DNA of 63,535 nucleotides, filler included. It is 7 parts of 7 records of this genome, joined end to end, with 100 filler letters (N's around TTAATTAATTAA, not from the genome) between each part and the next. Parts side by side here need not be neighbours in the genome. Positions count along the whole stretch, not along the records: positions 56,123 to 59,151 come from SRR20825010_2024; 6 more parts are not named here. One strand, 5' to 3'. The number at the start of each line of letters is the position of its first letter. Positions within the stretch are counted from its first letter, which is position 1. This document shows, one piece after another, positions 9,556 through 59,251 of the stretch. Position numbers and translations under genes: made by a program. A model generated the notes under the pieces. That model saw nothing but the letters and a program-made list of their open reading frames with translations. It did not search any database and was not told where the DNA came from.

Positions 9556-10548
9556 ATGAAACGCACTTTGCTTGGCGCCGTTGCGGCGTTGGCTCTTTCT
9601 TCCAGTCTTGCCGTTGCGGACTATCCCGAGCGGGAAGTGCTCGGTGTCGTGATGTGGGGCGCCGGTGGCGCGACCGATACCGTGGCCCGTGCCGTTAATC
9701 CGGCGGCTGAGGAAGCGCTTGGAAAGCCGATTGTTGTGCTGAACAAGTCCGGCGGCGCCGGCGCGATCTCGACCGCTTTCGTGAATGCGGCTCCGGCCGA
9801 CGGGTACACATTCCTTTATGGGGCCGAGAATCCGCAATTGCATCCGGTGATGGGTGTTTCCAGCCTCGACTATTCCTCTTTTTATCCGGTCAATATTCTG
9901 GGCCGTGGCGTTGCTGTGATCGCCGTTCCGTCGGATTCCAAATACAAGACGATGGCGGACCTGCTGGCTGATATCAAAGCCAATCCCGGTGCCGTTAAAA
10001 TGGGATCGACCGGTCCCGGCGGTTTGCCGAGCACGATCAGTGCCTTGATCGCGAACGCTGCCGATTTCGAGGTCACCGCCATTCCGTTCGGCGGTGAGGG
10101 ACCGGGCCTGACCGCCATGCTCGGCGGAGAGGTCGATTTCATGCCGTCCGGCATTTCCGCCGCGGCCGAGCAGATCAAGGCCGGCAAGATGCGGGCGCTG
10201 GCCGTGGTGAATCCGTCATCGGTAGACACGCTGCCGAACGTACCGCCGATCACCGACGCTATTCCCGGAATGGATAAATTCCTGCCGTGGGGGCCGTTCT
10301 ACGGGGTCTTCGTGCGCAAGGATGCGCCGGACGACGTGAAGGCCGTTCTCGAGAGTGCCTTCAAGAAAGCCGCCGAGAGTGAGCAGTTCACCACGCTGAT
10401 GGCCAATCGGGGCAATGTGATGATGAATATCTCCGGCAGTGAGGCGGAGGCGTTCCTGAAGAAGTGGCAGCAGGTCACTGTCTGGGCACTGCAGGATACG
10501 GGCGCGGCAAAGGTCGACCCGGCTTCTCTCGGTATCAAGCGGCCGTAA
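9556..10548 (+). CDS. tctC: Tripartite tricarboxylate transporter substrate-binding protein (TctC/Bug family)
   Basis: Signal peptide; 'YPER…WGAGGATDTVAR', 'NKSGGAGAI', 'APADGYT', 'PFGGEGPGLTAMLGGEVD'. Confidence 0.92.
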   Translation: MKRTLLGAVAALALSSSLAVADYPEREVLGVVMWGAGGATDTVARAVNPAAEEALGKPIVVLNKSGGAGAISTAFVNAAPADGYTFLYGAENPQLHPVMGVSSLDYSSFYPVNILGRGVAVIAVPSDSKYKTMADLLADIKANPGAVKMGSTGPGGLPSTISALIANAADFEVTAIPFGGEGPGLTAMLGGEVDFMPSGISAAAEQIKAGKMRALAVVNPSSVDTLPNVPPITDAIPGMDKFLPWGPFYGVFVRKDAPDDVKAVLESAFKKAAESEQFTTLMANRGNVMMNISGSEAEAFLKKWQQVTVWALQDTGAAKVDPASLGIKRP

Positions 10549-10555
10549 ATGGCAT

Positions 10556-10587
10556 GCCCAGGGGCTGTCTTCGGACGCCCCCTGGGC
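10556..10587 (+). other. GC-rich intergenic stem-loop after tctC (likely mRNA stabiliser or partial terminator)
   Basis: GCCCAGGGG…GTC-TTCG-GAC…CCCCTGGGC with a cUUCGg tetraloop and no U-tract. Confidence 0.55.
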
Positions 10588-10602
10588 TGCTATTGATCAT
10601 CG

Positions 10603-11097
10603 ATGATGCTTCATAAAACGAAGGGATCGGGCGAGGCCCTGTTCTCGCTCATCCTGGTTCTGTTCAGTGCCGCCGCATTCTGGCAATCCTATGGTATCTC
10701 AGGTTTCGGCGGCCTGACGACAGCGGGCATGTTCCCCATGCTTGCCTCCGCGACCATGCTGGCTGCGGCATCCTTTGTCCTGTCCGGGGCTGTGCGGAGC
10801 TTGTCCGAAAGCGATACTGACGACAGGCCGGTGACGGCGCATGCCGGCCCGGTGTTCTCGCGCGAGCTGCTGATTATCGTCGCGATGGTCGCCGCCTATG
10901 TCGCCGCGATGCCCTATATCGGCTTCGTGCTGTCTTCGGCCCTGTTCCTGTTCGCGGCGTTCTCTTATCTCTGGCGCAAGGGTCTGTTTCTCTCGCTGCT
11001 GATCACGGGTGTTTCGATTGCCGTGATCTACGTTGTTTTTCGCCTTGGCTTCCAGGTTGTCCTGCCATCGGGCACGTGGCTGCGGGGAGTTTTCTGA
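10603..11097 (+). CDS. tctB: TTT small permease TctB
   Basis: Four to five TM segments, 'GMFP', 'PYIGFVLSS', C-terminal 'VFRLGFQVVLPSG'; lies between tctC and tctA. Confidence 0.88.
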   Translation: MMLHKTKGSGEALFSLILVLFSAAAFWQSYGISGFGGLTTAGMFPMLASATMLAAASFVLSGAVRSLSESDTDDRPVTAHAGPVFSRELLIIVAMVAAYVAAMPYIGFVLSSALFLFAAFSYLWRKGLFLSLLITGVSIAVIYVVFRLGFQVVLPSGTWLRGVF

Positions 11098-30192: not shown

Positions 30193-30292
30193 NNNNNNNN
30201 NNNNNNNNNNNNNNNNNNNNNNNNNNNNNNNNNNNNTTAATTAATTAANNNNNNNNNNNNNNNNNNNNNNNNNNNNNNNNNNNNNNNNNNNN
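30193..30292. other. Artificial contig spacer
   Basis: 44 N + TTAATTAATTAA (stops in six frames) + 44 N. Confidence 0.99.
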
Positions 30293-33436: not shown

Positions 33437-33536
33437 NNNNNNNNNNNNNNNNNNNNNNNNNNNNNNNNNNNNNNNNNNNNTTAATTAATTAANNNNNNNN
33501 NNNNNNNNNNNNNNNNNNNNNNNNNNNNNNNNNNNN
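33437..33536. other. Artificial contig spacer
   Basis: N44-TTAATTAATTAA-N44. Confidence 0.99.
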
Positions 33537-37414: not shown

Positions 37415-37514
37415 NNNNNNNNNNNNNNNNNNNNNNNNNNNNNNNNNNNNNNNNNNNNTTAATTAATTAANNNNNNNNNNNNNNNNNNNNNNNNNNNNNN
37501 NNNNNNNNNNNNNN
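37415..37514. other. Artificial contig spacer
   Basis: N44-TTAATTAATTAA-N44. Confidence 0.99.
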
Positions 37515-44641: not shown

Positions 44642-44741
44642 NNNNNNNNNNNNNNNNNNNNNNNNNNNNNNNNNNNNNNNNNNNNTTAATTAATTAANNN
44701 NNNNNNNNNNNNNNNNNNNNNNNNNNNNNNNNNNNNNNNNN
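44642..44741. other. Artificial contig spacer
   Basis: N44-TTAATTAATTAA-N44. Confidence 0.99.
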
Positions 44742-56022: not shown

Positions 56023-56122
56023 NNNNNNNNNNNNNNNNNNNNNNNNNNNNNNNNNNNNNNNNNNNNTTAATTAATTAANNNNNNNNNNNNNNNNNNNNNN
56101 NNNNNNNNNNNNNNNNNNNNNN
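56023..56122. other. Artificial contig spacer
   Basis: N44-TTAATTAATTAA-N44. Confidence 0.99.
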
Positions 56123-56124
56123 AT

Positions 56125-56889
56125 ATCCATGCATTGGAAAAAGAAACCGGAAGCCGATTATTTGATCGGGTGCGCGGGCAATATCAATTGACCGATGCCG
56201 GTGTGGAAATGATGTCGCCAGCCCGGCAGATCATGAACAGCTTTGATACAATTGATGCCAAAGTTTCCGGGCGCGACCAGTCGCCAAGCGGGCTGGTGCG
56301 CATCACAGCGCCGACAAGTTTTTCATACTTCCTGTTGCCTGATTACTTTGCCCGTTTTCATATCGAGTATCCTGACATTCAGCTTGAACTCATGACAAGC
56401 AATCAGGAATTCAACATGACCCAACGCTACGCCGATATTGCCATCCGGGTCGCACAAAACCCGCCGGAACATCTGGTCGGCCACGAAGTCCGCACCTTAA
56501 GCTGGGGCATCTATGGCACCGAAAGTGATACGCCCACTGATGATCTAAATACGTTGTTTGCAAGCACCTTTATTGGTGCTTGTGGAACATTACACAGCCA
56601 TCCGGTTTTTAAATGGCTTGAAACGCGGTGTAGCGAAACAAAGCAGCATCAATGCGATGATCTGGTGGCAATGGCCCATCTGGCACGTGCCGGAAATGGC
56701 TTGGCGTGCTTGCCAACCGATCTTGCCATACCGGGCTTAAAGCTCCTTGCGCCGTTAAACGATATCGCGTCGAACAAATTATGGGTTTTAACCCATCCTG
56801 ATCTTCGCCATATCGAACGGATTAAACAGTCCATGCGATGGATCAGTAAATCGCTTCGATCTGAACCACGCCTTTCACAGGCCGTGTAA
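56125..56889 (+). CDS. LysR-family transcriptional regulator (5'-truncated)
   Basis: End of HTH 'LEKETGSRLFDR…LTDAG', 'SG.VRITAP', 'YPDIQLEL', 'ADIAIR', 'LW.LTHPDLR'. Confidence 0.9.
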   Translation: MHALEKETGSRLFDRVRGQYQLTDAGVEMMSPARQIMNSFDTIDAKVSGRDQSPSGLVRITAPTSFSYFLLPDYFARFHIEYPDIQLELMTSNQEFNMTQRYADIAIRVAQNPPEHLVGHEVRTLSWGIYGTESDTPTDDLNTLFASTFIGACGTLHSHPVFKWLETRCSETKQHQCDDLVAMAHLARAGNGLACLPTDLAIPGLKLLAPLNDIASNKLWVLTHPDLRHIERIKQSMRWISKSLRSEPRLSQAV

Positions 56890-57079
56890 TTCAACGCGAT
56901 GACAACAATATTTATATCGGTCGGGCAATTGTCATCCGGCCTTTTCTGGACAGGAACGACAAGTCGGTTCAATATGTTCGCAAGCAAAAGCAAAGTCATA
57001 GCACCGACTATGACAGGTTTCCGGGACAACAAGATCACGTGACCACGGCGCGGATGCCCAATGGTTCAAGGAGCAACAT

Positions 57080-57652
57080 ATGTCCATACACAAGACGGCC
57101 AAATGTCTGGCAATGATTGCACTGACGGGCGCACTTTCGGCCTGCGCTGTTCAACAAGAAGCCCCGGTCACGGCAACCAATTCCGGTAGCACCATCGTCA
57201 CCCCGTGGGGCGGACCATCCAATGGCACTGCGGCGAAAACCGCAAACACAACAGGCGCCAGCACCACACAGAACGACAATCTGGTGATGATGGAAGACCC
57301 TAATCAAAAGGCGCTTGATCAAATGCAGCAACAGCAGATTGATGAAGCCCGGATCGCGCTTGGCATCCTTGATCGTATGGCGCAACGCTGCGTTCAAAGC
57401 GGGGATGAAGCCGCGTGCAATACGCTTCAAACCAACTGGAGCACCCTTTCCCAACAACTGCACAAAACCCTGTCAATGGTGGCAGGCGATGCCATGATGT
57501 CCCCGATGAGCAGCCCGTCAAACACACCCCCGATGCCGACCAATGGCATGGATGATCCGATGAAATCCGACATGCCTGCACCTGCTGGAAACACGGAAAC
57601 ACCGGAAATGGAAAAACTCATTCCGATGACCCAACCGGGTTCCGATGGTTAA
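57080..57652 (+). CDS. Hypothetical lipoprotein with Met/Pro-rich tail
   Basis: AAGGAG RBS; lipobox 'ALSAC'; Thr-rich linker, helical core with C-x8-C, Met-rich C-terminus. Confidence 0.75.
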   Translation: MSIHKTAKCLAMIALTGALSACAVQQEAPVTATNSGSTIVTPWGGPSNGTAAKTANTTGASTTQNDNLVMMEDPNQKALDQMQQQQIDEARIALGILDRMAQRCVQSGDEAACNTLQTNWSTLSQQLHKTLSMVAGDAMMSPMSSPSNTPPMPTNGMDDPMKSDMPAPAGNTETPEMEKLIPMTQPGSDG

Positions 57653-57667
57653 GCTGAGGAGTTTTAC

Positions 57668-58747
57668 GTGAACGATAAACGTTATCAGGTCTTTATCAGC
57701 TCAACATTTGAAGATCTGCGGGAAGAACGAAGAGCAGTACAAGACGTAGTTATCAACAATTTGGGCTTTCCGGTCCAAATGGAATCATTTCCAGCGGCTG
57801 ACGTGGAACAATTTGAATTCATTAAAAAATTAATTGATCAATGTGATTACTACGTACTGATTATTGCGGGACGTTACGGTTCCCTGGATCAAGATGGCCT
57901 CAGCTATACTCACAAAGAATACCGTTATGCTGTGTCGCAAAAAATACCGGTTTTAGTGATGATTCATGGAGCCAAAGCTTCCATTGCGGCAGGAAAATCA
58001 GAAGAAACTCCTGAAGGAAGACTGAAGCTTGAAGAGTTTATAAAGGAAACCAAAACAAATAGGCTTTGCAAACTTTGGGAAACCATCGGTGATTTGAAAC
58101 TTGCTGTTCGTGAAGCCCTAGACAACGCGAAAGTTACCCAACCTAGAGTCGGATGGGTTAGAGGAGACAACCTTGCAAGCATTGATGCTCTTGCAGAGCT
58201 AAATCATTTGCGCAAAGAGTTAGAAAAATACAAAGAAACTATTGGTGAGTTAGCGGCAGAAATCGATGTTTCCCTTCCCGAAATCCCTGCTCTGACGGAA
58301 ACGATAAGTATTGAACTACTTTCGAATACAACAGGTTGGGGTACAGGCAGTTGCGCAAAGATAAAAACCGACTGGAAGTCTCTCTTCCCAATTTTTCACA
58401 ATAGCTTAGTATGGGAACAAGCCACTTGGGATGATTATCGTTACATCGTTGACCAAAGCGCGACTTGTATTAAATTAGGCTCGAATATCGCAGGGCTATT
58501 GGCAACTATTGATCCCAAGCAAAGATTTAAGGTTAGCGAAGAGACCTATGCCAGTTTGGAAGCATACTACATTGAAGCAGGCTTCATGAATTCGGAAGGT
58601 GCCGATACGCCCTTCACCGAGTTTGCAAAAAAGTTCTCTCGAAGACTGAGAATCTCTGGTGTAACCTCTAATGGATTTGAAGTTACCTCAGGCGAAATTG
58701 CTATTGTAGCTCAAGCACCAAACCTTGACGACGAAATCCCGTTCTAA
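57668..58747 (+). CDS. DUF4062 (TIR/nucleoside-deoxyribosyltransferase-like fold) protein with coiled coil, unknown C-terminal domain and SSB-like tail
   Basis: 'KRYQVFISSTFEDLREER', 'MESFPA', 'IDQCDYYVLIIAGRYGS', 'SYTHKEY.YA', 'PRVGWVRG'; ends NLDDEIPF*; GTG start with GAGGAG RBS. Confidence 0.88.
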   Translation: MNDKRYQVFISSTFEDLREERRAVQDVVINNLGFPVQMESFPAADVEQFEFIKKLIDQCDYYVLIIAGRYGSLDQDGLSYTHKEYRYAVSQKIPVLVMIHGAKASIAAGKSEETPEGRLKLEEFIKETKTNRLCKLWETIGDLKLAVREALDNAKVTQPRVGWVRGDNLASIDALAELNHLRKELEKYKETIGELAAEIDVSLPEIPALTETISIELLSNTTGWGTGSCAKIKTDWKSLFPIFHNSLVWEQATWDDYRYIVDQSATCIKLGSNIAGLLATIDPKQRFKVSEETYASLEAYYIEAGFMNSEGADTPFTEFAKKFSRRLRISGVTSNGFEVTSGEIAIVAQAPNLDDEIPF

Positions 58748-58912
58748 GCTAAATCTATCCAGCGCTTTTTTGTCTGGAGTAACTCACTTTGAGATAGAGC
58801 AAAGAAACCATCCTCCCGCTGATCTATCGTTGGTTCATGACGTCATGGATTACAGTGTTTTACACATACTGCACAGTCCGGCGCCACGGTTTGCATCAAA
58901 CGGAGATCGGTT

Positions 58913-59151
58913 ATGTATCGCGATATTCTTGTTCACATCGACACATCCCCTGCATGTAAAGAACGTCTTTCGGTTGCATTGAAAGTTGCCAAGGCCCAAA
59001 ACGCCCACCTGACCGGCCTGTTTCTTTTGCCCTATCCCGAAATTCCGCGTTTCATGGAAGTCCAGATCACCGAAGAAGTCATGGCGCAGCAACGCGAAGC
59101 CATGGCCGAAACCGCACAATCGGCCCGAACTGATTTCGAAAGCACCTGCAA
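58913..59151 (+). CDS. Universal stress protein (3'-truncated)
   Basis: 'MYRDILVHID…RL.VA..VA….AHLTGL'. Confidence 0.82.
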
Positions 59152-59251
59152 NNNNNNNNNNNNNNNNNNNNNNNNNNNNNNNNNNNNNNNNNNNNTTAAT
59201 TAATTAANNNNNNNNNNNNNNNNNNNNNNNNNNNNNNNNNNNNNNNNNNNN
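59152..59251. other. Artificial contig spacer
   Basis: N44-TTAATTAATTAA-N44. Confidence 0.99.

Follow-up and report, generated by a model that had tools for sequence, protein, structure and literature searches.

The DUF4062 gene and its product

[quoted passage not shown] Its last codons (58721-58747) read N-L-D-D-E-I-P-F-stop, which confirms the coordinates and the ending proposed in a first-pass annotation made from the sequence alone. By homology, the gene is predicted to be a single-protein abortive-infection defence of the Swarozyc or DUF4062 ('NIR') kind, and its tail is shared by a subfamily of homologues in which it follows the SSB tip of the host. The GTG start codon is supported by the homologues, because their N-termini start at an equivalent M-x-D-K-R-Y-Q-V-F. 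The parts of the gene are listed below; KpSwz is the Swarozyc protein of Klebsiella pneumoniae, and structural assignments refer to AlphaFold2 (AF2) models and their predicted local distance difference test (pLDDT) scores.

57656..57661, plus strand: Shine-Dalgarno-like GAGGAG, 6 nt 5' of the GTG, read from the sequence
57668..58747, plus strand: whole coding sequence of the Swarozyc-family DUF4062 protein with SSB-tip tail, 359 aa, GC content ~42%
57674..58135, plus strand: predicted TIR-like (DUF4062 / 'NIR') NADase domain, aa 3-156, from Pfam, the KpSwz match and the AF2 strands and helices through helix 140-156
57917..57919, plus strand: GAA, encoding E84, which is predicted to be the catalytic glutamate and aligns with KpSwz E97
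58151..58168, plus strand: G162-W-V-R-G-D167 loop from the TIR-like domain to the stalk, pLDDT <50 in the monomer model
58181..58261, plus strand: long helix aa 172-198, equivalent of the Swarozyc helical stalk, from AF2 and the alignment with KpSwz
58280..58711, plus strand: aa 205-348, sensor domain (AUX) of a type of its own, with an N-terminal β-hairpin, a winged-helix-like core and a terminal β-hairpin
58712..58726, plus strand: short variable linker Q349-A-P-N-L353, pLDDT ~57-64
58727..58744, plus strand: tip D354-D-E-I-P-F359 at the C-terminus, with which the SSB tip of many alphaproteobacteria is identical

Three preprints of 2026 describe DUF4062 as a TIR-like NADase domain used in anti-phage defence (10.64898/2026.05.01.722283, 10.64898/2026.06.25.731849, 10.64898/2026.09.04.749371). 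In the first of these, KpSwz is reported to be an NAD+-hydrolysing abortive-infection protein dependent on E97 (10.64898/2026.05.01.722283). The query protein matches the KpSwz chain 10wc_A (PDB 10wc, 11cq, 11cv) over aa 3-250 when searched as a single sequence with HMMER (E 7.5e-51), and a profile of 52 homologues extends the match to aa 3-256 (E 1.3e-70). The numbering of the KpSwz paper equals the chain numbering plus 13. E84 aligns with chain position 84, where the deposited E97A mutant has Ala, and the equivalent residues of query and KpSwz are R5/R18, E84/E97 and W163/W176. R5, E84 and W163 are invariant in all 52 aligned homologues. The query protein is a close KpSwz homologue, and this residue-for-residue alignment bears out the earlier proposal of a TIR-like effector, a predicted NADase with its catalytic glutamate at position 84.

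The family assignment of the first-pass annotation holds as well, since Pfam places DUF4062 (PF13271) on aa 7-88 with an E value of 5.8e-29, and the motifs VFISST, GRYGS and S79-Y-T-H-K-E84-Y are present in this part. None of the Pfam TIR models (TIR/TIR_2) scored at E ≤ 0.01, and neither PADLOC (2023) nor NCBIfam holds a model for the query protein. A Foldseek search with the whole model gave weak matches to the RPS4 TIR domain (4c6t_D, E 1.7e-3, template modelling (TM) score 0.58 by target) and to the nucleoside-deoxyribosyltransferase-like proteins BcmB, DNPH1 and MilB. EF-Tu and other Rossmann-like chains that filled the list were disregarded at TM ~0.2, and KpSwz was not among the matches from this library, which runs to April 2026.

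AF2 run on the homologue alignment gave a full-length model with a mean pLDDT of 82, in which strands and helices alternate to about aa 156 and are followed by the poorly modelled GWVRGD loop, a helix at 172-198 and a confident C-terminal domain. G162, W163, R165 and G166 of the loop are invariant in the 52-sequence alignment. The coiled coil that had been suggested at about aa 171-198 corresponds to this one long helix.

The C-terminal region had been described as an unrecognised domain of about 150 aa. A confident domain at ~205-348 is indeed present (pLDDT ~90-98 in the full-length model; 89.6 with a predicted TM score of 0.82 when modelled alone with AF2), but it can be placed, on weak evidence, as a diverged Swarozyc AUX domain. 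Nearly all of its best VIA-align matches are winged-helix proteins (MarR, PadR, the winged helix of ORC/Cdc6, the RQC domain of WRN) with weak Z scores of 4.2-5.5. An hhalign comparison of the query AUX type (21 sequences) with KpSwz-type AUX domains (31 sequences) gave a probability of 38% and an E value of 3.4e-4 over 120 colinear columns, and the HMMER alignment of query and KpSwz ends at about aa 256. In the ESM Atlas, the AUX part retrieved only unnamed clusters below 0.9. A word-based search with aa 199-359 had no matches and also missed known full-length homologues, so it is uninformative on AUX fusions. The query domain is probably, with weak support, a diverged winged-helix Swarozyc AUX followed by a terminal β-hairpin, a short linker and the tip. 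Two proteins from the same bacterial group (L027 and L029) join N-terminal halves 54-56% identical to that of the query to a KpSwz-type AUX domain, and therefore the sensor halves are exchanged as modules.

The C-terminal tail and the SSB of the host

SSB uses its C-terminal tip peptide to recruit replication, recombination and repair enzymes, and its partners include ExoI, RecQ, PriA, chi, DnaG and others. The hexapeptide DDDIPF is described as the conserved C-terminal element of SSB, SSB-Ct (PMC5872125). In the DUF4062 lineage, the tip is conserved while the linker before it diverges, which is the pattern for which the first-pass annotation had proposed to test. Among close homologues (120 listed of 1,576 matches, with 50-60% identity and full coverage), 120 of 120 end in PF, 119 in [IVL]PF and 58 in exactly DDEIPF, and the stretch before the tip varies in sequence and in length from 0 to ~14 residues. 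P358 and F359 are invariant in the 52-sequence alignment.

A wider set consisted of 150 representatives of 50%-identity clusters, drawn from 8,232 matches. All 15 representatives that align to the query C-terminus (39-55% identity) end in IPF, and the other 135 include one PF ending, a non-acidic KLPF. Eighty genome loci comprise 26 with the query AUX type, 3 with ORFs running off contigs and 51 complete ORFs with other C-terminal halves. A PF ending is found in every one of the 26 query-AUX loci, 25 of them having [IVL]PF and one (L020) TPF; the 51 others contain it in L071 only (...DDEPDTLPF). Among the sequences compared, the tail defines a subfamily that has the query AUX type.

A scan of five whole genomes for DD[DE]IPF-stop gave 11 occurrences, in six ssb and five DUF4062 genes and nowhere else, and a reversed control pattern gave none. 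Because the tail is kept in all 120 listed homologues and this pattern is confined to ssb and DUF4062 genes in the five genomes, the tail is not a chance occurrence.

Several copies outside the regular pattern were seen. The L071 protein (10001-10960) has a KpSwz-type AUX domain yet the acidic ending quoted above, and comes from a Verrucomicrobia metagenome-assembled genome whose SSB ends in ...DIDEDVPF. One further such tail was found among 120 proteins from a search around L071, in P0355, which has a KpSwz-type AUX yet ends in ...DLSDVDNDLPF. The nearest relatives of both proteins have no acidic PF ending, and the two tails may be independent acquisitions of an SSB-like tip; such a tail has probably arisen on more than one occasion. 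In Nitratireductor, a copy (L049, 10001-10327) stops after 110 aa despite 74% identity and is possibly a pseudogene or a contig artefact; the copies L022 and L024 are cut off by contig ends.

The tails of homologues were also compared with the SSBs of their own hosts, a comparison already recommended in the first-pass annotation, and the two agree closely. We located ssb in 25 of 25 homologue-carrying genomes. The host SSBs in 24 genomes end in D-D-[DE]-I-P-F, and at position -4, where the residue is D or E, the tail equals the host SSB in 23 of these 24 (20/21 and 3/3). Over 21 pairs, the mean suffix shared by tail and host SSB is 6.8 residues, against 4.6 for shuffled host pairings, and a value as high as that observed did not arise in any of 20,000 shuffles. 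The longest identical suffix, GGNFSRDLDDDIPF, has 14 residues and occurs in two Rhizobium genomes (L009 and L011), and others are GGGGFDDEIPF with 11 residues (L007), SDLDDEIPF with 9 (L001) and DFDDEIPF with 8 (L014). When hosts were swapped between near relatives, identity over the last 14 residues became lower in 8 of 10 swaps, was tied in 2 and was never higher; a non-overlapping subset of six gave five lower values and one tie. A tree from which the tail had been left out shows four changes of the D/E state, in host and protein alike.

The matching residues of tail and ssb use different synonymous codons, including AGA against CGC for Arg, and therefore the likeness is upheld in the protein sequence and did not arise by recent copying of the 3' end of ssb. 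Fresh recombination with ssb was rejected as the origin of the tail on the same ground, the difference at synonymous sites. Second, shorter SSB paralogues were seen in three genomes, G004, G013 and G018 (L086, L098, L099, L105), with the endings ...KFIDDDDIPF and ...ELVDRDDEIPF. Upstream of the tip, their tail differs from the chromosomal SSB and is identical across three loci, and this second paralogue is probably carried by a mobile element. The DUF4062 tails are closer to the chromosomal SSB than to these second paralogues. As sequence observations, the conservation of the tail and its match to the host are solid; its role we infer.

One use of the tail would lie within the protein, as an internal latch or assembly peptide whose acidic tip is bound by the AUX or TIR-like domain of the same chain or by a neighbouring subunit, with the likeness to SSB as a by-product. 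Members that have almost no linker before the tip would suit such a contact, but such a contact does not explain why the tail follows the host SSB for as many as 14 residues, with the linker part GGNFSRDL among them. The AF2 models give the last residues no confident docked position (pLDDT ~57-64), and KpSwz assembles without a tail. We consider an internal latch very unlikely.

Genomic context and distribution

Six spacers of 100 bases divide the window, and the genes that belong together are set by their positions. The window consists of several contigs of a draft or metagenome-assembled genome placed end to end, and gene order across the spacers is not real. The additional features are as follows.

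30193-30292, 33437-33536, 37415-37514, 44642-44741, 56023-56122 and 59152-59251, no strand: spacers, runs of N with a central TTAATTAATTAA that carries stops in all frames
57080-57652, plus strand: ORF of 190 aa directly upstream of the DUF4062 gene, its stop 15 nt before the GTG

The true contig of the DUF4062 gene is window 56123-59151 only. It contains the 3' part of a LysR-type gene, the 190-aa ORF, the DUF4062 gene and the beginning of a Usp-type gene; the genes for RNase H, APH and LytB farther right are on a different contig and are not neighbours. The 190-aa ORF encodes a lipoprotein-like N-terminus (...ALTGALSAC...) and a Pro/Met/Asn-rich body, and had no family match in Pfam beyond a sub-threshold IpaC_SipC. 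It was rejected as an operon partner, being not kept beside homologues and host-like in GC content. Scans for promoters and terminators gave counts close to those expected from shuffling (4 and 6 observed, 3.1 and 3.0 expected).

The neighbours of homologous genes, at most three ORFs on either side, were surveyed with Pfam at 23 genome loci (133 ORFs in all; L011 left out). PADLOC was run on the 69 of these ORFs that had no clear housekeeping match and on five ORFs from a plasmid locus. No neighbour gene family is common to more than 4 of 24 loci and therefore the gene is a one-gene system, as the first-pass annotation had supposed. A defence system recognised by PADLOC lies at most three ORFs away in 7 of the 23 loci: Hachiman (L005), retron type I-C (L010 and L012), Septu or PDC-M01 (L013 and L025), Ssp (L075) and PD-T7-5 with PDC-S73 (L004). 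Integrases, IS66 elements and resolvases are common near query-type genes. In two Rhodobacterales genomes, a retron-type reverse transcriptase fused to Toprim (PADLOC RT-Toprim_I-C, E ~1e-209; L010 2825-4651 and L012 11129-12847, both on the minus strand) stands immediately downstream of the DUF4062 gene with integrases or IS66 nearby, and the pair looks like a small shared defence island.

The distribution of the lineage is rare and patchy, and a profile of the query AUX had no matches in 400 other sampled genomes of the class. The plasmid collection contained one full-length copy, on pSymA of Sinorhizobium meliloti KH35c, with 49% identity and the ending GGNFSRDLDDDIPF. This copy (L123) lies at 313223-314326 of the record of this conjugative megaplasmid, with its end given as GSTGGNFSRDLDDDIPF; the ORFs on its two sides are one for an IetA-like AAA ATPase and one that is subtilase-like. 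A further 198 staphylococcal plasmid records match the N-terminal domain only (aa 5-188, ~33% identity). Two Acinetobacter phage records match aa 3-205 with 25.7% identity, and no record of the phage collection has a full-length copy.

Some copies lie between housekeeping genes, namely EF-Tu and S10 (L019) or truB and pnp (L017), or beside sdhA (L023). Such loci would suit a protein with no part in immunity, an accessory with a housekeeping function in replication or repair, for which the tip would serve as it does in other members of the SSB network. The absence from the 400 sampled genomes speaks against such a role, and so does a GC content foreign to the flanks, since the DUF4062 gene has ~42% as compared with 55-65% in the genes on both sides. 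The different AUX modules on similar N-terminal halves (L027, L029), the frequent defence and mobile neighbours and the close homology to KpSwz, a proven abortive-infection NADase, point the same way, and we regard a housekeeping function as hardly credible.

A possible role for the tail and comparison with known systems

According to the preprint on KpSwz, this protein is autoinhibited as intertwined dimers and higher oligomers through AB and AEB interfaces, and W176 lies in the intertwined dimer beneath the TIR-like domains, with the helical stalk following; GWxRG loop and stalk are the parts by which these assemblies form. Upon activation, up to 13 AUX domains are reported around the 12-mer portal of phage Bas14, which is contacted by the hairpin residues W238/Y239, and the AUX domains of five tested Swarozyc proteins are described as similar to each other (10.64898/2026.05.01.722283). 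Because of its homology to KpSwz, the query protein may be expected to share the effector chemistry, the autoinhibited oligomer and the activation by sensor clustering. A complex prediction with two full-length copies scored 0.29 against a mark of 0.32, without controls.

The tail equals the host SSB tip, follows host variants and always stands at the free C-terminus of the sensor half, and this implicates pockets by which the genuine SSB tip is read as well. For the RecT recombinases of phages, recognition of the final seven residues of host SSB is reported, and their limitation to certain hosts is ascribed to it (10.1101/2020.04.14.041095); a tool paper of 2026 is related (PMC13490951). [quoted passage not shown] Because of the implicated pockets, the RecT-SSB reports and these escapers, we favour a bait model in which the tail is read by proteins that dock on SSB tips and clustering switches on the NADase, and we assign it a probability of about 0.45.

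In the bait model, the tail would be read in trans by proteins with an SSB-tip-binding pocket, and the likeliest readers would be phage replication or recombination proteins that are obliged to dock on host SSB, such as RecT. Readers of this kind are often multimers and would gather several tail-and-AUX modules on one scaffold, as the 12-mer portal gathers the AUX domains of KpSwz. Clustering would then pull the stalks and free the TIR-like domains from autoinhibition, and the freed NADase would deplete NAD+ and abort the infection. Put a shade more tentatively, the tail could be a molecular bait, a displayed hub peptide of SSB matched to the host, by which a phage protein docking on SSB betrays itself and activates the NADase. 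RecT-type recombinases, helicase loaders and nucleases are candidates for reading it.

Several points weigh against the bait model. The only characterised close relative, KpSwz, senses the portal via its AUX domain and is tailless, so that the AUX alone could be the sensor and the tail could serve otherwise. The lineage is known here from genes and models alone. There is no ssb gene within the window, and host matching rests on the genomes of relatives. The host-matching counts share ancestry and are phylogenetically non-independent, and independent D/E contrasts number one on well-supported branches (four in the best tree), which is not enough for a sign test. One locus (L075) departs from the match at position -4, with a tail of GDLIPF and a host SSB of DDEIPF. 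Some members have weakly acidic tips (PNEIPF, PSEIPF, YHEIPF), and in some the tip follows the last β-strand almost directly, which might limit its reach.

The tailless portal sensing of KpSwz leads to a second use of the tail, as a tether that parks the NADase on host readers of the SSB tip, at forks and repair sites, while the AUX senses a separate signal such as the portal or a DNA structure. The query AUX is probably a diverged form of the Swarozyc AUX, which binds the portal in KpSwz, and matching to the host SSB tail would be expected from co-evolution with host readers. Eva01 is moreover reported to prefer recombination-like DNA or DNA with single-stranded overhangs (10.64898/2026.06.25.731849). 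However, KpSwz works without a tail, which indicates that localisation is not needed for the basic mechanism of the family, and we find a tether rather unlikely.

The same identity with the host tip, and the same following of host variants, would be expected of a ligand for a host protein. A host reader of the SSB tip might hold the tail and keep the NADase quiet, and infection would free the tail by competition and let the enzyme fire; the release could be caused by a flood of SSB-coated single-stranded DNA, by phage SSB or by a phage protein that blocks the SSB network. Retron-Eco8 (10.1101/2025.11.11.687766) and DARNA (10.64898/2026.02.22.705581) are reported to be defence systems that respond to phage SSB or SSB-bound single-stranded DNA. 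Against such a guard, KpSwz is self-autoinhibited, and what activates it is the arrival of a partner and not the loss of one; moreover, no host partner is conserved beside the gene. Guarding by a host protein therefore appears distinctly unlikely.

If the peptide is a bait or a tether, it would connect phage replication or recombination with the suicide of the cell in a simple way. In either case, phage escape would be hard, because phages need to read the real SSB tip. As a bait, the protein would be a bacterial counterpart of the integrated decoys in plant NLR receptors, and short hub peptides, not only folded sensor domains, could act as immune sensors. The acidic ...LPF tails of L071 and P0355 would be independent inventions of the same trick, and mimicry of short hub peptides would be a way of sensing worth seeking among further proteins of defence.

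The query protein resembles SSB in its last six residues, which are those of the SSB tip in the alphaproteobacterial hosts examined, Pro-Phe being invariant in both. It differs from SSB in having no oligonucleotide/oligosaccharide-binding (OB) fold, as Pfam finds DUF4062 only and both domains are modelled with other folds, and in its linker of 5 residues, as compared with the long, disordered Gly/Pro/Gln-rich linker of SSB. Literature searches found no publication describing an SSB-like tail on a defence protein, and the words SSB and IPF are absent from the main text of the three DUF4062 preprints, a statement that covers the main text and not the supplements, which possibly contain members of the lineage.

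With Swarozyc and KpSwz, the query protein shares the single gene, the DUF4062 domain, the catalytic Glu predicted by alignment, the GWxRG loop, the stalk and a colinear start of the AUX. After about aa 256, the query AUX is only remotely similar and has an extra terminal β-hairpin. KpSwz ends in ...WKLSPKGMELMMQLRTVKS followed by two residues, without IPF; this ending, ...MQLRTVKS plus two residues, has no acidic tip, in contrast to DDEIPF in the query. The trigger of KpSwz is the phage portal, sensed via the AUX.

Evangelion Eva01 is described as a single DUF4062 protein with a C-terminal auxiliary region that acts by abortive NAD+ depletion (10.64898/2026.06.25.731849), and its link to recombination matches the replication or recombination sensing proposed for the query lineage. 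In contrast, the AUX of Eva01 is described as short and unrelated; the staphylococcal plasmid copies probably correspond to the Evangelion type. Vulcan, Vesta and Avs2-DUF4062 are reported to have the effector domain, the catalytic Glu and NAD+ depletion on a viral cue in common with this group, but sensing is done in them by HEAT repeats, by a small ligand-binding domain paired with a phosphatase or by STAND NTPases (10.64898/2026.09.04.749371). It was not until 2026 that DUF4062 NADases became known as immune effectors, and those characterised sense with a folded domain, which takes hold of a phage protein. The new element at this locus is a distinct lineage of this recently described kind of defence, in which the sensor end carries an invariable, host-matched SSB docking peptide.

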